A DNA stretch of 64,000 nucleotides from positions 13,144,001 through 13,208,000 of the forward strand of contig OY740821.1 in NCBI GenBank assembly GCA_963514005.1. Direction: 5' to 3'. Positions 18,932-30,819 of this stretch are shown here, piece by piece; the first letter of the stretch is position 1; every line of letters begins with the position of its first letter. The notes under the pieces are model-generated. The model saw nothing but the letters and a program-made list of their open reading frames with translations. It was not told where the DNA came from and made no database searches. The stretch comes from Raja brachyura. Lineage: Eukaryota. The position numbers and the translations under genes are program-made.

Positions 18932-20974
18932 GGGTCAGGACTCTTCTTCAGTCTGAAGAAGGTTTCTGACCAAAAACGTTGCTTATCCACGTTCTCCATG
19001 GATGTTGCCTGACCCGATGAGTTACTCCGGTACTCTGTGTCTTTCCTTTGTAAACCAGCATCTGCAGTTCCTTGTTTCTACATTCCTCACTATCAGCCAC
19101 ACTGGGCAAGAATAGCAGATATCCGCACAAATCCAGTACTTGAGGTCAACACCAATTAATTCTGGATTATTAACCAAATTTAAATTCCACAGCCGCTGTG
19201 GTCCGATTCAAACTCAGTCTCTGGATTGCCGCTATCATACCCGGGACAGCAGTGAAGGCACCCTGCCCCACAAAGCAGCACCAGGCAATATCTTATGTCT
19301 ATCTGAGAGTACAGATGATCCCCCCCAGCTCAGATAGAGCAGCATTCCTTGGAGGGTGAGCCTTGAGTGAAATGTGAATTCACAATGCCTGAAACTTCAG
19401 CCCCTCAGAATTTAGTGGAAAAAAAAAACTTGATTCACTTACAGATTCTCTCTCATCTTTTGGTCATGCTGGAATAGTCCCTCGCTAAGAAACCCTTCTG
19501 TATGTAGAGCTAGAAATCCAGGGGTTACAAAGTGGAAAATGTGTTGACACAGACAATGTGAGGTAATTTTATGCAGGTATCTTGTCATTAATACTGATTG
19601 GTACGAGGTTGTTTTTCTGGCATTCAGATTGCTCACATGACGTCAACATTAGTGCAACACCCAAAGTCTGTCTCCTGTGACATTTTCAAACAAGTTGGCC
19701 TAAATAATGACAGGCATTGTTCACCCAGAAAAAAAAATCTGTTTTTAATAACGCTCAAACTGAATATTATTTAAAAATGTATCAGTCATAGGTAGACTGC
19801 ACCACATCGCTCTACATGCTCTCCTCTCACTCTACAACATGTTCTCCTTCAACACTGACCCTTCCTTCCATTTTAAAACACTTTGCTGCCATCAAAACTG
19901 CCATTTAAATACCCATCTTGTGCAAAGTGAGGGTGTTTGCAAACTGTATTAATGTCCTTACAGAGAGTAAGTTCCCATCTAGATGTATCCTTGAATTGGT
20001 ATAAGGGTGTAAAAGAAGCCGACTCCCAAGGCACCCAGTCACCCCTCACAATTCCCTAGCCTCAGGAGCGCTCTAGGTCCCATCTTCAGATGTAAACCGC
20101 ATCCCAGAGGTCGCTGATCACTGCTGCATCAGGGATGTGACTGACACTCTCTACCAGAACAGGCTTCAAACACTTTTACTTTAGCCCACATGAACAGGCT
20201 GAACAGGGAATTTTGTTCTTCGAAGGAAAATTCTCTGACCCTACGCCAAAGCATTATCCCGTCCCTTATTTTTGAAATACAATGAACTGAGGACATCACT
20301 CCTGTGGATGAGCTGACCCCCACCAGGATGACCCACTGCCCCAAAATATTCCTGTCATTAAACCCAGGAACACACTCCCTGCCATCAGGGAGCAGCCAGC
20401 TATGCTGAAGTGATCACTGCTCACCAATCACTTGAAGGGTGCTGGTGGTATTGACTACTATACCTTTAAGAGTTGTCTGATGAGGTATGCATCTAAGTCC
20501 TCGCAGCACTGAGAAATGTGATCAGAAAATTCTGCTGCTCCTGAGACAGTCAAATGAGGGAGATAGAATGACGTTTTTCAACTGGTACTCGTGAACTTTG
20601 CAATCGTTGACGTACTTTTTAAAACAGCAACAAGAAGGCACAATAATCATGTTTTAACATTTTAAAAAGCACAAACAGAGGCCCATTTCTTATACGGATC
20701 TGTGGATAGATAGATGCTTGATACACAAGGGGTTGAAAGATTTCCAGGATAGGCAGGAATGCAGAGTTTCGGTCACAATCAGATCAGCCATGATCTTATC
20801 AAATGAAGCAGCGGGTAAAGGAGACGAGTGGCCTCCTCCTAAATCGTATGGGGAACACAACAAAATAAACTGAAGGAAGAGCTTAAAACCTTCAGAGGAA
20901 CTTCAGGGGTCAGAGGGTCTTGGGCACCCAGCTCCCCCCCACCTCTCAGTGATCTAGGAGCTCAAGGTTAACCT

Positions 20975-21028
20975 GGGGTGGGAGATTGCAACCTTCACAT
21001 AGTCCGCCCTGTTTCAACAAATGCAATC
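20975..21028 (+). ncRNA. HDV-like ribozyme fold (this copy probably CpG-decayed)
   Basis: P1 GGGGTGG(20975-81)/CCGCCCT(21004-10) with G1-U wobble; P2 GATTGCA(20984-90)/TGCAATC(21022-28) perfect; P3 ACC/AGT with one mismatch; L3 TTCACAT; single P1.1 C-G pair; minimal P4; candidate catalytic C21018 followed by AAA. Confidence 0.75.
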
Positions 21029-21115
21029 AACCCGGCGTGCACAATCAAATAAGATCAAATAGAACAAGTTGTCCTACAACTTTAGGCTGTGCATGCCACA
21101 CGCAAGAAGAAGAAG
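20975..21115 (+). mobile_element. Short non-autonomous non-LTR retroposon (Ingi/Vingi- or RTE-derived) with ribozyme head and (AAG)n tail
   Basis: Direct repeat aaggttaacctgg at 20964-20976 and 21116-21128; 3' end gccacacgcaagaagaagaag; no Pol III A/B boxes evident. Confidence 0.75.
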
Positions 21116-23561
21116 AAGGTTAACCTGGTGGTTCATAAAGCACAGCTGTACTGTTAGGCAGAGAAGTCAGGCACGGATAAAACTAACAGCTCCACATCCA
21201 ATCTGGTAGAATCACAGTAACTATTCCTGATATGAGTTTCTTAAATTCCTGGGTTTTTTTTAAGTAACTGAACTTAAGCTTCCCAGCTGCCACAGTGGGA
21301 TTTGAACTTGTGTCGCTCAATCATCAGACTTGGCATTGGGAATTACTATCATAACCCCTGTGCTACCACATTCGTGTGTTAGGCAGCAGGCAGGCAGGCA
21401 GTCAGTTGCCTTTTTCCACACCGTCACGGATCACTTTCAGGTCTGTATTTGTCCCACGTGATATCATCGGGGGGGGGGGGGGCTAATTGCCTTGGAAACA
21501 ATTACCCAAATTTGTTGGCATTTATTACAAGTGCAAGCAAATATAAATAGCACTTCTGATGACTTAAGATGCCAGTTGGTAACCTACTGGGAGGTAAGGG
21601 TCCAATGGGAGAAGGGGTATTTGATGTGGAGTAATCGCTATCATTCATGTCGCCAATTCCAGGTTATTAATTCATGGCAGCTAATAGAAATTACAAAAGG
21701 GTGGGCATGAGTGAGAAGATGCCACCCAACACCCAGCTGCATGACTGTGTAGAGATGTCTCATTTCCAGGGATTACCAAGCTGTGCCATGGCACATAGGC
21801 GCTGCTTTAATTAGTTCCTGAGAACTGGGCGTCACAGGCAAGGCCAACATTTATTGTCTATCCTCAATCGTCGTCGAGACAGTGCTGGTGAGCCAGAGTC
21901 CTTCTGATAGAGGTGACTGTCTGACCCTACCAGGTCAGAGGAAAGTTGAGTGTCAAGCGCATTGGAGAGGGTCAATTTCCTGCCTTAGAGGACAAACCCA
22001 GCCCAACACCTTGTACAAATGGGCATCGTTCATTAGGGAATCCAGACAATGAGTGTTTGTGGCACCCCATCCAAGCTTGATGGCATCCTAATCCAATACA
22101 GGGATGCTACACGTCCCACATGTCTTCACATGATACCAAGTAGTCCTATTGTCTTTCTGCAAAGCTTTTTTTAAAGCTTCTTAAAACCCCAAGACAACAA
22201 ACCTACCACAACTGCCATCATTTACCACAGAATTGGAGGCCATTTAGTCAACATAATAAGTATGGTCAGAGTCAACGGCAAGGTTTGAATTGGGAAGAGT
22301 TTGCAACATGAGAAACAAACATAATGGCATGGCAGGATGTTTGCACTGTAACCAGGCTCTTTTCTAGAATTAACCTAGACCCTTTATCCCTTCATTACAC
22401 AGCTCACACGACAGGTGGATGCTAACAATCCAAGTAAACACATCAAATATTTATCTCAAGGCAAGTTGCCAGAAACAAAACAAAACTCTCCTGAAGTTTA
22501 CTGTTTAACTATTAAGATAATAAAACACGGTATCACATTATAAAGCATAAAAGTAGAGTGCTGTTTGGAACTGTGCAATAAAAAATATTTTCCTCAGCTA
22601 ATTCTTGCAGGTTTCACTGCCGAGATAACAACTTTTACAATCTAACGACTTCAACAAAACATCTCAAGGCACTTCTCAGGAGAGTTACCAGACAAGAAAA
22701 AAATCAATACAGAACTGCATAGGGAGGCATTAGGCTAAATAACCAAAAGTTCACCTAGTGAGATAAGTTTAAAGGAGTGTCCCTAAAGGACGGGGAGAGG
22801 CAGAGGGATTTTGGGAGGGAAGCCCAAAGTTTGGGGCCTGGGCAGTTGCCAATGTTGGAATGATTGAAGCCGGGCAAAGTCCAGAGGCCAGATTTAGCAG
22901 AGTGCAATGAAACAACTATACAATACCGTCATATAGTTCTCCAGGCTTCTGCGTTATTAGTCCAGTAATGTAGTTGCAACATCAAAGTTTAATAATTCCA
23001 CCATTGATTCGTTCTGATAATGAGTTCCACTCCTGATATGTTAACTGTTTCTTATTCCACAAAACTACCTGACCTGCTAGATGTTTCTAGCATTTCTTTT
23101 GTTTTTATTTCAGATTTCCAGCATATGCAATTTTTGGGATTGTCATCCGGCTCTGGCAGTCGTGCCTTCATCTGCCTGGGCTGTGGAATTCCCTTCCTGA
23201 ACCGTTCTCCCTTTTGACCCATCTTCTCCACATTTAAGACTCACTCCCCTTAAAGCCACCTTGTCCATCCAACCCAGCCTGTGGTAATGATCTGAAGTTA
23301 AATACAGGCTCATCCTGCTCAGCTTTTCTTCATATGTCAACCCTCTCTTCTGGAGAGAAGTCTTTCTACCCAAATCCAGATCCCAGGCGTTAAAAAAAAA
23401 AAGCATTTGCACAACATCACTCCCAACACGAAACTCCAGGCTTCCATTCCAGCCTGTGGTATTAGCTGATGGAAGTTGGGGCAATGGAATATGTTGGGGG
23501 CAATATAAGGATCAGTGTGAAAGCGAGGTACAGAATCCGTCAGTGGAGTAGTGCTGCGGGG

Positions 23562-23622
23562 CTGAATGGCACTCGTGCTGAAGTTAACTGTAATGTTAAA
23601 CTTTAGCACGAGTGCCATTCAG
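23562..23622. repeat. Near-perfect 61-nt inverted repeat (hairpin)
   Basis: ctgaatggcactcgtgctgaagtt [13 nt] aactttagcacgagtgccattcag: 24-bp stem with a single G-U (+ strand) or A-C (- strand) position. Confidence 0.9.
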
Positions 23623-25261
23623 GCAAGTACAGGATCAGGCTGTGTGCGTGCCAACCTAGGGGTATGTGCTGCCCAGCCTCACCCTTGAACAAGGGTTCAA
23701 TGAACTCTTTGGGCAAATTATTAGAAGACCAACAAACCCGGAATTGTACAGCAAAGTTAATGGCAGGAAAGAGTATCTGGGATAGGGAATAATGAAAAGA
23801 AAGAGAGTCCTGGGGGAGGACTGAAATCTGAAAGCACGCTCTGTGCCTGCCAGCATAAAGAGACTTGTCCCTTCAACAGAACGCTTGGCTTTGCATTCCA
23901 TTCCACACAGAAATAGAAGCACTCAGATAGCTGCACCCGACCACTGATGGAAAACGGACGCAGCTCCCCATTTATGCAGAATGACGGCATCATTCTTTTA
24001 TAGCCATCAGTGTCAATCAGCAAGCACACATTCCAATGGAGACACTTGTGTGGAGGAATTACAGGTCAGGCAATGGGATTAGACAGCACCGAATTAGGCC
24101 AGCAGGAATTATTCAGGCTAAAAAGACTCACTGAGGTCCATAGTTGGAAATATATTGAATAAGCACTTCTCATTTCTACTGTCATTTTCAAGTATTATAA
24201 TATTTCATGTACGAAAGGACATGAAGGCAATTGATTACATGAACGCAGAGAAACATCAGTAAATTAAAGATAAATGTTTCTACATTATTCGAGGGAATGC
24301 TTGATAAAGAAACTACTTCTTATTCTTATCCCATACAGGACGTGCCAGAATGCTTCATAGTAACAGGTGGCTGTTGGCGAGGACATTGGGAAAAGACTTT
24401 GAATGGCATCGTCAGATCTCGTACACCTGCCCAGGTCAGTGAACAAGGACACATTTTGACATCTCATCGTTTGAGAGTAAAAAAAATACACCTGTCTTAA
24501 TATTGTTTGAAGAGTTAGCCTAGAGTTTTCAGCTGCAGTGCGGGTCCAAACCTGTAATCTGTTTTCCTCATTTTAAGAGACACACAAGAGGCTGCAGATG
24601 CTGGAACCTAGAGCGAAAAAAACAATTGGGAGTCCAGAGGAAAGGTCTCAATGTGAAACATCATCTGTCCATTTCTGTCCAGCTGAGTTCCTCTGGCAGA
24701 TTTTCTAATTTTAAATCTGAGATTGGTAAATTATTGTTAACCAAAGAGAGTTAGGGATATGTGGAAAACATAGAGGCCAGCTATGATCTCTTTCAATTAT
24801 GACCAGTTTCCAGGAGGCAAGTGGCCACCTCCTGTTCCTATGTTCTAATTCTTACATTTGTAAACATCATAAAAATTAAGCTCATCAAATGGGAAGAATA
24901 GTTATCTTTATGCCGCTTGCAGTTTGGAGTGTGTTATCGGCAATAGAGACAGACAAAGTCCTCGACCAGGAACTCGGAGTACAAAACAGGCTGTTCAAAG
25001 CATGTTTACCTCGGGACCAAGTTACCATAGCAGCCACAGATCAAAGAGCCATTAACGTTAAAAGTTATGGTTCTTTGAAGGTCATTCATTCCACAAAAAG
25101 TTTGGGAGCATCCAGCAAGTTTCCATTTAAATATAGAATGTTTAATCAGACCGCCCCACCCAAGAAGGCACAGGACAGCTCAGTGGGCACAGCTGTCTTT
25201 CACAGCTGCCCCCTCTATGTCCATGTGCTGTGCAATGCTGGAGAGCATCAGAGTCTAACCT

Positions 25262-25520
25262 AATAGAGTCATAACCTCATACAGCATGGAAACAGGCCCT
25301 TTGGCCCAATTTGCCCTTGCCAACCAAGATGCCCCATCTACACTGGTGTCATCTGCCCGTGTTTGGCCCATATCCCTCTAAACCTTTCCTATCCATGTAC
25401 CTGTCCACATGCATTTTAAATGTTGTTATGGTACCCGCCTACAACTGCCTCCTCTGGCAATTCATTCCATGAATGCACAAACCTCTGTGTGAAAAGGTAG
25501 TCCCCCAGGTTCATATTAAA
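25262..25520 (-). mobile_element. CR1-type LINE 3' end
   Basis: catacagcatggaaacaggcccttggccc...ccctctaaacctttcctatccatgtacctgtcc, the antisense CR1 tail shared with the V-SINE 3' end. Confidence 0.7.
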
Positions 25521-28500
25521 TGGACAGGGAATGTTTTGGATCCATTCAAAATGTTGTCTGTCCATTCTTTCCACAGATGCTGCCTGACCCATTGAGTTCC
25601 ACCAGCACCAATTTGTTATAGGCTAGCCTAAACCTGCCTTCACCTATTAGTCACTCGATTTCCAGTATGGAGCAGAAACCCTGGCCAATTTGAACACACT
25701 TCAAGGCCTTTGGTACATTGGCTGAAGCCAATTGGGGACCCCTAACTGTACGCTTTGCAAACGCAACTGGCCCTGGCAACTCCTCGTCACAGTAACTTCT
25801 GGTACATTTCTCGATAGATCATCAGGGAATTGCGTTGCTCCAGAACCTTTGACTTCCTTTTCTGAATATCTCAAACCCCGTTACACCCAGTGAAGTGTAG
25901 TCACCCTTGTAATGGTGGAGGGAAACATGACACACCACAAGATCCCACAAACACAAATGTGATTACAACCTGATGATTTGTTTTATGACTAATAAATATT
26001 TGGCAGGAATAAAAACAGAACATGCTGGAGGCAATCAGCAGATCAGGCAGCGTCCATGCAAAGAGAAAGAGTTAACTTTCAGTCCAGTCCGAATGAATGG
26101 TTTCTCTTTCCACAGGTGCTGCCTGACCTGCTGAGCATTTCCAACTTATTCTGATTTCCAATGTCAGATTTCCAGGATCTGATTACTTAATAAATGAAAC
26201 CTCCGCCCCTAAAGCATTTTGGTTGATATTAAAACAAACGTTTCTATCAAGTGCTTGACAATCACATGCCTGTTCATCACGATCACGCTCTTGTGAAGGT
26301 TAAGTGCTTGCTGGGTTTCTAAATTAATGCCATTTACAGGATATCACAGTCAACTCTGCTAAGTCTCTCCGGCATGTCAGAAGTCGAGCTCAGCTCCCAT
26401 TAATGAGAGCGGCGAAACTGGGGTTTATTAGAGGCGCTTGAAAAATCTGTAAAATAGCACCTTATGTAAAAGAGCAACGCCCAGTCAGATTGGTCTCCAA
26501 CTGATTCACACAGACACACCCTGGGCACAAATATTTCAATCCAGTTCTGCAGGTACTTTAACTCTTTGAGGTCTGGCCCGCTCATCTCACCAGAGCAGGA
26601 GAAGGAAGTAGACCATCAGTTTGCTGCACGCCAACCTCACTGTTTAGCACAGAGTAAACAGACAGAGGCGTGTTGGACAGACAGATTGGAAAGACCCAGC
26701 TTAATTTTCTGTACTGCACCAGGATGTTTGAACTCAGGGCTGTTGCAATTGGCATTTTGGACCCTGGACTAGAAGGAGAGGCTCACTGGCATTGCTTCCA
26801 CATTGCCTTTGTGATGTTCCAGAGCACCTGACAGCCAAAATAGTATTTTTAAGTGTTGACCCCAATCAAACCATGTCCCAAACTTATGCACAACAAGATC
26901 CCCCAAACATCAGAGAATTTCCTGACCTTCCACTTACAGTGATGGTTTTGATACTATTGGGCCCCAATATTCCCAAGAAAAATCTTCTTCACAGTGGAAA
27001 GAGGGAGGGAAATTCCATATAATATGATTCCCTGTCATACGCAGGATATTTGTCCTGCATTTTTTTTTTTGCCCCCGCAGGAGCTACCAGACACAACATT
27101 GAATTGCTTTTAGCAGGCGTCTGTTGCAGGACTGTGTGAAGGGGAAAGAATCTCACCAATCTCTGGTTTAATTTAAGGCATGTTAATGTTGGAACTGCAT
27201 TCTGAACTCCAGTGCTCACAGTCCAAGTTAAATAGCACGAATTCACTTTAACGTTATCTGTGCCTCAGGCTTTCCAAAAATTCTTGGTGGGTAAACGTGT
27301 CAGGGCTTCATGGTCTATAAACATAAACATTTTAACCAGCGATGCAAAAACAAATGTATGGCAACAAACAGCCTCTGTGCTTTTTCACATATTTCACCAC
27401 GGCAACATTTGTCGATGAACTTCGGTAAAATTAGACAGCATGTTTACGCCAGTTACTGTGCCGAACACCGGGTCGCTTCGCATTTGGATAAAGATTAAAT
27501 GACAGGAACAGAATGATGAAGGAGCAGATTGAAGCGTGGTCAGGGAAGCCACGTAACGCGTCTGCAATCGCCCCTTTTCCTTGGCCCTGGTTCGTGAAAA
27601 TAAAGACCTGCATTTGCATAGCGCCTTTTGCATCCCTTCCAAGAAATCCCCAAGTGCTTCATAGCCAATGGAATACTTTTAAAGCGAATTAACCTGCCCA
27701 GCAAGCTCCCTCAATCGCCAATGCAACAATGACCGGTGAATGAATCAGGAGGCTTTCCCTCTTAAAATAGTGCGTCCAGCCAAGAGAGCGGACGTGGCCT
27801 CGGTTTAACGAAAGACAGCCTCATCTCGGCACCAAATTCGAGTAACTCGACTTGCATCGAGCTGAACATCGGACTCAGGACAGTGGGTTTGGAAGATCCA
27901 AATGGCGTCGGGTCTTGGAGGCTGGGAATGGGCTCGGCTGCCAAGCAGAATCTGCTTGCTTGGGGGGTTGTGTTAAACACCCGGCTGCTCACTGGACACA
28001 CGGGACAGGGTCGTGTATCTTTGTGTGGCTCAGCACCTTTGGAGGGGGAAGAGAAACTGAATATTTTTTTTGGAAAAGCAAGTCAGACTTGCTCTTCCAA
28101 CGAGATTGTTTCATTCTCACTGGCACCGAACGACACGTACAGCTGCAAGAAGAGTCCAAGTTACAGCCAAAACAAATTAGCGCTGTTCCACTTACAAGAA
28201 CAAGTAGAAAATGGGAAAATAATCGCAGGTGCTTTTGTCTGTGCAAGGTTTGTGTTTTCAAGCGTTAGTTGGAATGCTCATGACTATTCATTCATGGGGC
28301 ATCAAAGCAGCTTTTAGAATTTCATTCAGGTGGTAGAAAAGCACCAAGACTAGTGCCAAAGCACCCTGAGTAAACGAGGACTGATGTTCGTGCTTTCATT
28401 AACAGACTTTGCCCCCCCCCCCCCCCCATACAAATCAGTTATTGGAATTAAAAATACAAAACAAGGCCATTCAGTCCATCGTTGGCCATGCTGGAGAAAA

Positions 28501-28644
28501 ACAGACTGCAGATCAATCCCACATAAGTCTGAAGAATGGTCCCGACCCGAAACATCACTCATCCCTTTTCTCCAGAGATGCTGCCTGGCCCACTGAGTTA
28601 CTCCAGCACTTTTTGTTTCTCTCCACTTCTGTTTTAGTTTCATT

Positions 28645-28919
28645 TAAACAGGTCCTTCAGCCCACCGAGTTCTTGCCGACCAACGGTCACCTGTGCACCA
28701 GCACTCTCCTACACACTGGGGACAATTTACAGAAGCCAATTAAACCTACAAAACTGTGCGTCTTTGGGATGTGGGAGGAAACCAGAGCACCCGGAGAAAA
28801 TCCACGCAGGTCACGGGGAGAAGGTACAAACTCTGTGCAGACAGCACCCATAGTCAGAATCGAGCCCAGGTCTCTGGCGCTGTGAGGCAGCAACTCTACC
28901 GCTGTGCCACCGTGCCACC
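28645..28919 (-). mobile_element. V-SINE (HE1-like), near full length
   Basis: Antisense tRNA head (ctctaccgctgtgccaccgtgccacc), V-domain gtgggaggaaaccagagcacccggagaaaa, and tail. Confidence 0.85.
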
Positions 28920-29509
28920 TACTTCTCAATATTGGAAAAGGCCCAGTGGGACCCATCGCAACACATCCCCTGATACAGTGTCAAAGGATTCAAGAGTAGG
29001 CAAATAACTGGGCACTTGTCCCAAGGCCACTCCACTATCAATGGGGTCAAGTCAGGAATGTTGGAGCAACCCTGAATTCGGTCCAAACATCCAGAACAGA
29101 GCACCTGCTAGTTCGGTGCTCCAAGTGCTGGAGTCCACATCCAGCTCTGGGACTGTGGTGTGCGCCATCTACAAGAAGCCCCACAGTGAGGTTAATCCCA
29201 TAGCATCTCCTGAATCCTGACGCCTGCTCCAGAGATAGGGCAGCAGCAGCAGCAGCAACGCATTCAGAAACATCTTCAGCTTCCCCAAAGCCCCATGGAT
29301 TCTGACCTAGCACATGGTGGAATTCTGGCTGAGTTCCGCAACCACTGAACTAGAAGTACAAATTTGATTCTCACCCCAGTAGCTCGATAATTTAAATTCA
29401 GTTCATAAAATAAATCTGAAATGTAAAAGAAACTGATATCAGCAGCAGTGACCAAAAACCAATGTGCCACTAGGACGTGTGACTGCATTGGCAGGTCAGA
29501 TTTGAAACA

Positions 29510-29792
29510 TTGAGTAGAGTTGCTGCTTTACAGCGCCAGAGACCTGGGTTCAATCCTGACCTCTTGAGCTGTCTGTGCCGAGTTTGCACGTTCTCCCTGT
29601 GACCGCGTGGGTTTCCCCTGCGTGCTCCGGATTCCCTTCCACATTCCCAAGATGTACAGGTTTGTAGGTTAATTGGCTACGGTAACATTTTACATTGTCC
29701 CTATTGTGTAGGATAGTATTAGTGCACTGGGAACACTGGTCGGCGCGGACTAAGTGGGCCGAAAGGTCTGTTTTCGCGCAGTATCTCTAAAC
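29510..29792 (+). mobile_element. V-SINE (HE1-like)
   Basis: gtagagttgctgctttacagcgccagagacctgggttcaatcc...gagtttgcacgttctccctgtgaccgcgtgggtttcc...gggccgaaaggtctgttt. Confidence 0.85.
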
Positions 29793-30819
29793 TTTTTTAA
29801 ATGGCATTAGTGCAATAAACTAATATTGAATCATTGGGATACTGTAAATAGATGCTTGTCTGCTGACAGTAACATAATGAGCCGAATGGCCTGTTTCCAT
29901 ATTGACTATCCCAACTATGGATGCACCAAATGCAGCCGTGGCATTCTCACAGTTGCAAGGTCTGGCACACCACTCACAGAAGGACCCGCCTCGTGCCACC
30001 CACTCCCGAACCTACTGGAGCACTTGGCTGGAACAAACTTTGATTTTTCTGTTCAAAAACACAAAAGACGGTCAACATAATGGGATTAAAACTAAAGTCT
30101 TAAACAAGCACTGTACAATTGTTTTGATCTCATGTTTTCTCACAATCTTAGCTTTGGACCCTGACCCAGTCCAAATAGCAGAGTGAGATCATGCTACAGT
30201 TACCACAGATAAAACTCAATCAATGGCATCAATGTTAGGCATGTTACCTTCAGACATTCGCAACCACAGATGAACCAGAATGGCCTTCTTGCACGCAACG
30301 GGCAGAATCCCAGGTCAAATATGGGTTGGATCCATTTGCCAAGAAGAAAAAGACTCGAGAAGCATCAATTCTTGGTGATATTAAGCAAGTTGGCCTCCAA
30401 ATGGCCCAGGGGGTGAAATACATTGTCCAAAGGAGCATGTGGCTGGAGATTGAGGCTGACTTTCACCCCCCGCCACCCCCTCCATCTCTGTATTCGCTGA
30501 TTCACAGGGCAGACAGGGAGCTTAAGTAGCCGACTGCAGGAAGGGAAAGACAACACCTCGTCTTTGATTCCTTGGAGTAAGGAGGAGAAAGGGAAACCAG
30601 TCACAAATCCTTCTACCCACCAGGATCAGGCATAAAGACTAGTCAAATGAGTGGGTGGGGGGGGGGGGGGGGGGGAAGAGATGGGAGCTCTGTGATGCCT
30701 AAGATCCCAAATTTGCGCTGTGGAAGTTGGGGCACCGTCATGTCGGAAACAGGTGGAGGAAGCAGTGTGGCCCCTTGCCCCTGCTCTGCCATCCCATGGT
30801 AGAGGCATCTGCAACCAGA

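Follow-up and report, generated by a model that had tools for sequence, protein, structure and literature searches.

A 141-nt derivative of a likely Vingi LINE, headed by a predicted HDV-like ribozyme, in the genome of Raja brachyura

Short derivatives of long interspersed nuclear elements (LINEs) that keep both ends of the parent across an internal deletion, ribozyme-headed ones among them, are already known from several systems (NARTc, RIME, the R2 short internally deleted elements or SIDEs, and the hedgehog Vingi derivatives). Here we describe a further element of this kind, first noticed as a 141-nt insertion in a 64,000-nt stretch of the Raja brachyura genome (GenBank assembly GCA_963514005.1, contig OY740821.1, positions 13,144,001 to 13,208,000 of the forward strand), which is referred to below as the window and whose own numbering is used throughout. 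The element is probably a non-autonomous derivative of a LINE of about 3.1 kb, likely of the Vingi clade, with a predicted ribozyme like that of hepatitis delta virus (HDV) at its head, spread by target-primed reverse transcription through LINE protein. It differs from the known derivatives in its near-minimal ribozyme and its copy number.

The hedgehog Vingi-1_EE derivatives (Kojima et al. 2011, via PMC5786205) likewise connect the two termini of a compact LINE lacking RNase H, with the interior deleted, in a vertebrate host; the difference is that here the head fits a 54-nt HDV-like fold. A passage of the same source names Vingi as one of four clades that yield bipartite derivatives, and lists 5' ribozymes for six clades (R1, R2, R4, RTE, Ingi, LOA), Vingi not being among these. 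In the NARTc/L1Tc, RIME/ingi and NARTco systems (PMC4035085) the short derivative keeps the HDV-like head of the LINE, and the shared 5' block measures 77 nt there as it does here. Cleavage has been demonstrated for NARTco, whereas here it is predicted from the fold, and the trypanosome Pr77 elements differ further in the RNase H of L1Tc, in a ribozyme of about 77 nt that includes P4 and in their protist hosts; Pr77 also acts as a promoter (PMC4035085). The Drosophila R2 SIDEs and R2/R1 hybrids (PMC3414825) also consist of a ribozyme head, an unrelated middle and a LINE 3' end, and they depend on co-transcription and self-cleavage. They are, however, specific to a site in the ribosomal DNA and low in copy number, and R2Dwi_SIDE is 529 bp long with a large ribozyme, while the present element is 141 nt, dispersed and found in more than ten thousand copies. 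The R2 elements (PMC3414825) and NARTco (PMC4035085) provide the precedent for self-cleaving heads on such derivatives.

Two ribozymes are close in structure. The minimal HDV-like or theta ribozymes (bioRxiv 10.1101/2023.06.13.544163) retain the core of HDV but have lost P4 or keep a vestige of it, as here, yet have been described in gut phages, often beside tRNAs, rather than at the head of an animal retroposon; the refined theta motif gave no eukaryotic match among the genomes searched in that paper (human, mouse and protists). The CPEB3 ribozyme (PMC4836649) agrees with the present head in letter and numbering at U20, U21, C22, A23, G25, U26, G37 and U38. It differs in that it is conserved, lies in an intron, has a true P4 hairpin and catalytic C57, and stands in no mobile-element context.

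The insertion and its parent LINE

The insertion occupies 20975-21115 on the plus strand, where the features of the window copy described below also lie, and is flanked by 11-bp direct repeats at 20964-20974 and 21116-21126, read directly from the sequence and corresponding to the 5' and 3' target-site duplications (TSDs) that are common in copies of the family. Its 3' terminus is (AAG)4 at 21104-21115. The edge of the 3' repeat is ambiguous, since the G residues at 21127-28 also equal the opening GG of the element. The initial annotation of the window had described such an insertion with direct repeats and an (AAG)4 tail, and this description holds. Pfam gave no match among 60 selected open frames of the window.

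The initial annotation had further postulated an autonomous partner sharing both ends of the element, and this LINE was found. It was reached through an endonuclease search that led to locus L150 and, from the L150 protein, to further families including that of L206. In L150 a stretch of 3.1 kb opens with a related head and finishes in an AAG tail; L206 opens with the first 75 nt of the short element at 89% identity; and L248 carries both ends of the element, 3.1 kb apart. In further copies of the parent, blastn aligns nt 1-77 of the element at 85-93% identity and its stretch from nt 100 to the 3' terminus at 84-100%. Exclusion-pattern searches for the parent, which are weak tests, gave 49, 23 and 19 matches, of which 45, 23 and 19 were inspected, and brought up nothing but variants of the short element and copies that were truncated or interrupted. 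The top PF14529 matches belonged to a Nimb-like family unconnected to the element.

Alignment with the LINE divides the window copy into three parts. The block from the LINE 5' end (nt 1-77) covers 20975-21051, and four more bases past nt 77 agree in most LINE copies. An 18-nt junction with no LINE counterpart lies at 21056-21073. The block from the LINE 3' end, at 21074-21103, contains the last three codons of the open reading frame (ORF), the stop codon at 21083-85 and an 18-nt 3' untranslated region (UTR), as read from the collinearity of the ORF end with an intact relative of the parent, P0001; it is followed by the (AAG)4 tail, which is found also in the parent and in sister Vingi-like LINEs. 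The 3' part of the junction is the partner of the LINE-derived tail in a hairpin of 7 bp (21066-72/21076-82), and the junction may have arisen by fold-back or by a template switch. As judged by sequence comparison, the element is a SIDE, both ends of which come from the same LINE.

The parent is about 3.1 kb long, and its disrupted ORF is collinear with residues 19 to 1019 of P0001, an intact 1,019-aa protein with an apurinic-type endonuclease (APE) and a reverse transcriptase (RT), at 55-73% identity. Pfam recognized endonuclease and RT but RNase H in none of ten pieces, while a Nimb-like control piece did give RNase H; none was present either in the precomputed domains of 120 listed homologues. 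Vingi elements are defined by a compact single ORF that lacks RNase H (PMC13708176). For the intact relative, PF14529 and a C-terminal Cys/His knuckle are present, and its RT reaches 144 bits against a Nimb-like LINE with RNase H, compared with 112-122 bits against CR1/L2-like LINEs. These features mark the I group. The parent is likely a LINE of the Vingi clade, the RT comparison covering Nimb-like and CR1/L2-like references, and its architecture (single ORF, APE and RT, no RNase H) is Vingi-like, in keeping with the Vingi/Ingi-like family suggested from the tail in the initial annotation.

Several observations concern these LINEs more generally. P0001 is 64% identical to the RT query, compared with 45% for the next match, a closeness that could bear on horizontal transfer. 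The relatives of the RT in the PDB were L1, R2 and a group II intron only. One parent copy contains an inserted open frame of 194 codons (L249:2252-2833) that reads like a ferritin retrocopy. At L103-L132, L161 and L162 an abundant LINE family is found that has RNase H and an ORF upstream; it is presumably Nimb-like and of the I group. Three Vingi-like families start with an HDV-like fold that has a long P4 region, and have an AAG-type tail (L150:1358, L169:1201, L186 on the minus strand at 1235, and L214:627). Loci L085 and L093 hold another deletion derivative of the parent, shorter and joined differently, which is apparently rare.

A dispersed family of short copies

The family is far from single-copy, in agreement with the initial annotation. 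A first look at the 2.7-Gb genome gave 2,344 candidates, of which 40 were scored, at 94-100%, and an 18-mer from the 3' part of the element has 12,039 exact matches, the reversed control having none. For a sample unbiased with respect to the head, the first 90 consecutive 18-mer matches on contig C1 were taken, and these comprised 85 short copies and five LINE 3' ends. The head lies within 200 bp in 74 of the 85 short copies; in L266 and L276 it is found farther upstream, separated by later insertions. A hand estimate suggests some 20,000-30,000 3' ends genome-wide.

Upon comparison of the flanks, a TSD of 8-21 bp (median 12) was found in 55 of the 74 headed copies and in one of 74 mismatched controls. 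In 28 copies it stops directly before G1, in 12 it runs on by one base and in 5 it falls one base short, so that in 45 of 55 its end lies within one base of G1, the predicted cleavage site at which the initial annotation had placed the start of the element. The 12 duplications that stop one base later all end in G and are ambiguous with G1 itself. Uninterrupted paralogous repeats match the joined flanks for 7 of the 27 copies tested.

After removal of two duplicate twins, 72 heads were classified into three subfamilies, A (n = 40), B (n = 9) and C (n = 23), the last being the type of the window copy. At non-CpG sites A, B and C diverge from the commonest letter by 3.2%, 5.3% and 5.5%, and at CpG sites by 7%, 19% and 15%. 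Letter-perfect 54-nt heads number 1,320 for the A variant and 364 for one C variant, 1,684 together. A strict check of the fold, described below, is passed by 26 of the 72 heads; scaled by hand, this predicts about 3,500 copies with a modelled intact fold among the exact matches.

At the window locus, the empty orthologous site proposed as a check in the initial annotation did not appear among the 15 contig joints displayed of 30. In public run X15, contigs with flanks about 96-97% identical enter the element from both sides, and the site is therefore occupied there; in run X16 a contig ends at 20954. All 12 sampled family words are present in 17 public runs with 8 organism labels, and, once possible sources are excluded, family words remain in 7 runs from 6 studies with 6 labels. 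The range of repeats in the genome fits a cartilaginous fish.

Three minor features of the copies were also seen. A hairpin in the body that joins both blocks (21034-21097 in the window; L291, L284 and L263), scored in one copy of each subfamily, is strongest in C (z -4.7, compared with -1.1 for A and -1.9 for B). A subfamily A copy with its target duplication lies inside its own parent LINE (L253:402-540; also L226 and L244). Another short repeat is found in or against copies near nt 76-99 of the element (L266, L274, L281, L323), possibly a preferred target.

The predicted ribozyme fold

The fold was examined with a descriptor of our own, built from HDV rules and including a C-N-R-A pattern for J4/2. 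The relaxed form allows the L3 change and one mismatch in P3; the strict form does not. The relaxed descriptor has a single match in the window, at 20975 on the plus strand, and none in 60 dinucleotide shuffles of the window searched on both strands; the strict descriptor, which matches family copies, also finds nothing in 60 shuffles. The order of helices P1, P2, P3 and P1.1 is that of a nested double pseudoknot, under the strict form in the family copies and under the relaxed form in the window copy.

In the window the 54-nt fold spans 20975-21028, with cleavage predicted 5' of G1 (20975). P1 is formed by 20975-81 and 21004-10, including the G1.U36 pair, and is connected through J1/2 (20982-83) to P2 (20984-90/21022-28). 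P3 (20991-93/21001-03) has one mismatch and carries L3 (20994-21000), from which C20996 makes the single P1.1 pair with G21011 (C22-G37). A 6-nt linker (21012-17) takes the place of P4 and leads to J4/2 (21018-21), where C44 (21018) is, from its position within the fold, the predicted equivalent of the catalytic cytosine (C75 of HDV, C57 of CPEB3). These helices and loops lie where the initial annotation had drawn them, down to the G1-U36 pair and the mismatch in P3. Its tiny P4 is correct as a description of a vestige, though the 6 nt between G37 and C44 leave one pair at most.

The key positions are well kept in the family. G1 is present in 66 of the 72 sampled heads and its P1 partner U36 in 65; G25 and G27 are each present in 67; and C44 is kept in 65, the other seven having a C-to-T change. 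The window copy keeps C44. Five letters set it apart from L005, a well-kept copy (G25A, G27A, G42A, G45A and C120T), four of them at CpG sites, the exception being G27A. The CpG change G25A (20999) abolishes the U20.G25 pair in L3, a pair credited with positioning the catalytic Mg2+ (PMC4836649), and G27A (21001) opens the P3 pair adjoining L3; both the L3 pair and an intact P3 are present in the family and lost in this copy. Because these two lesions hit U20.G25 and P3, the window copy is, judging from its sequence, likely a crippled ribozyme, weakened or dead, as had been suspected. CpG decay, the earlier explanation for the odd letters in L3 and J4/2, accounts for G25A and G45A, but the J4/2 of the window still fits C-N-R-A, and the damage therefore sits in L3 and P3. 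A family consensus was likewise expected to restore P3, L3 and J4/2: it does so at G25 and G27, and at G45 in the window's own subfamily, while the largest subfamily has U at 45.

Since the copies of the short element are young, they cannot reveal covariation, but the sister LINEs, which were retrieved by protein similarity, can. The strict descriptor matches the 5' start of three sister families (L150/L169, L186 and L214). A count by eye on the descriptor output gives two-sided changes between these families and the short element at 13 of 18 pair positions across four lineages, distributed as 5/7 in P1, 6/7 in P2, 1/3 in P3 and 1/1 in P1.1, where C-G is replaced by U-A. The spacing between G37 and C44 is about 38-48 nt in the three sisters, as opposed to 6 nt here. 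The parent head also has the 6-nt spacing, indicating that the P4-less state predates the short element. Heads of the parent and of the subfamilies differ solely at positions 8 (J1/2), 32 (U-A to U.G) and 45 (the variable base of J4/2), all of which are compatible with the fold. This modelled structure predicts that the head, 54 nt long, acts as an HDV-like ribozyme cleaving itself before G1.

Mechanism, alternatives and implications

The proposed history is supported by the two LINE-derived ends, the copy number, the TSDs ending at G1, the fold with its covariation and the three subfamilies. The element keeps, on this reading, the first 77 nt and the last ~42 nt of the LINE. By analogy with the R2 SIDEs and NARTco, a copy lying within a host transcript that reads through it from a host promoter would cleave exactly before G1; LINE protein, presumably that of the parent itself, would then bind the 3' block, nick the DNA and reverse-transcribe the RNA from the target primer. 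With a length of 141 nt, most copies would be completed through to G1.

A number of points weigh against this account. The ORF is broken in every parent copy scored and no driving master was found, although these are 45 of 141,154 first-look candidates from a strict first look. The short copies, whose heads show 3-5.5% non-CpG divergence, look younger than the LINE, whose copies are 81-92% identical to L206 in pairwise comparison. As to the fold, the descriptor enforces pairing, so that an all-paired outcome is built in; the weight therefore rests on where the matches fall and on the empty shuffles. P4 is almost absent, and a fourth sister family, of the L213 type, fails the descriptor. Rfam (E<=10) reported no ribozyme family in the window copy or in three loci with better-kept copies, and nested minimum-free-energy folding, a method that ignores pseudoknots, found the sequences no more stable than expected: z was -0.02 to -1.4 in the window copy, and +0.92 and -1.3 in L263. 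Two well-folded SIDER candidates are reported to be inactive, and the Pr77 head doubles as a promoter (PMC4035085), so that precise ends at G1 could also stem from a transcription start.

If so, the head would be mainly an internal RNA polymerase II promoter, its ribozyme fold being baggage or weakly active. The combined promoter and ribozyme of Pr77 and the non-cleaving SIDER heads lend this some credit, as does the nearly missing P4. The changes that compensate each other across four lineages, at 13 of the 18 pair positions, are an RNA-structure signal, however, of which a DNA promoter has no need; the three differences between parent and subfamily heads, all of them fold-preserving, also speak against it, and we regard the promoter explanation as unlikely. 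That the short element became an RNA polymerase III (Pol III) transcript in the manner of a short interspersed nuclear element (SINE), with cleavage no longer needed, is very improbable. Weak A-box-like (nt 5-15) and B-box-like (nt 38-46) stretches can be picked out by eye, with 2-3 mismatches to the consensus, and a run of four T is absent from the element; the LINE has such a run immediately past the deletion point, and the rarer derivative in L085 and L093 retains it. Against this reading, the element has no Pol III terminator of its own. Moreover, a canonical SINE has a head from tRNA, 7SL or 5S RNA, while here it is supplied by the 5' UTR of the LINE itself, ARAGORN found no tRNA gene in four loci and Rfam no small-RNA family over the element. 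The label SINE-like in the initial annotation is refined here to a bipartite SIDE.

The remaining alternatives concern the LINE that is involved. RTE elements are single-ORF LINEs without RNase H, and a parent from that clade would leave the mechanism unchanged. According to PMC5786205, RTE is among the clades with 5' ribozymes and is another source of bipartite derivatives. The RT of the intact relative, with 144 bits against the Nimb-like LINE and 112-122 against CR1/L2-like ones, together with PF14529 and the C-terminal Cys/His knuckle, points away from RTE, to which we give a rather small chance. Mobilisation of the younger copies by a sister Vingi-like family after the death of the parent would account for the broken state of all scored parent copies, and the L150-type family has the same last few bases and the AAG tail. 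The scored copies of the sister families look broken too, however, and with 45 candidates scored an intact parent master may lie among the remainder or be unassembled; this also seems improbable. Spread of a Vingi-derived SIDE by its parent's protein, with a ribozyme as its head, is the explanation we prefer.

No paper on the family, or on a Vingi ribozyme, was found in literature titles and abstract openings, and the element may well be catalogued as a repeat already. A bolder version, to which we would give somewhat less than an even chance, is that the family is undescribed and its 54-nt, P4-less HDV-like ribozyme active, the first head of the minimal class on an animal retroposon; that thousands of working copies cut host pre-mRNAs when in sense orientation; and that the 77-nt head and 42-nt tail form a natural minimal template for Vingi trans-mobilisation. 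Judging from the modelled fold, the Raja brachyura genome likely holds thousands of self-cutting RNAs. The ribozyme-headed derivatives of trypanosomes and flies are of modest copy number, whereas here a genome-wide family makes it possible to test the cost of dispersed ribozymes to host transcripts and the purging of sense, intact intronic copies. If the fold is active, 5' ribozymes would extend to the Vingi clade, with a near-minimal eukaryotic HDV ribozyme standing alongside three sister LINE ribozymes that have long P4 regions. Vingi LINEs serve as RNA-only gene-writing tools with their native UTRs (PMC13708176), and a natural 141-nt template therefore indicates which cis-sequences may suffice.

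Pairing between the 5' and 3' UTRs as a general rule for LINEs was rejected in two tests on five LINE families. In the parent the median z values (-0.85 and +0.05) were not significant, the same was true of the L150 family, and two families were borderline. Pairing was strong solely in the L213 family, between the 5' UTR and the 3' end (median z -4.1 and +4.25). The head of this fourth family (L213:650-720; also L207, L208 and L212) shows P1, P3, L3 and a two-G P1.1, without a clear catalytic C before P2.

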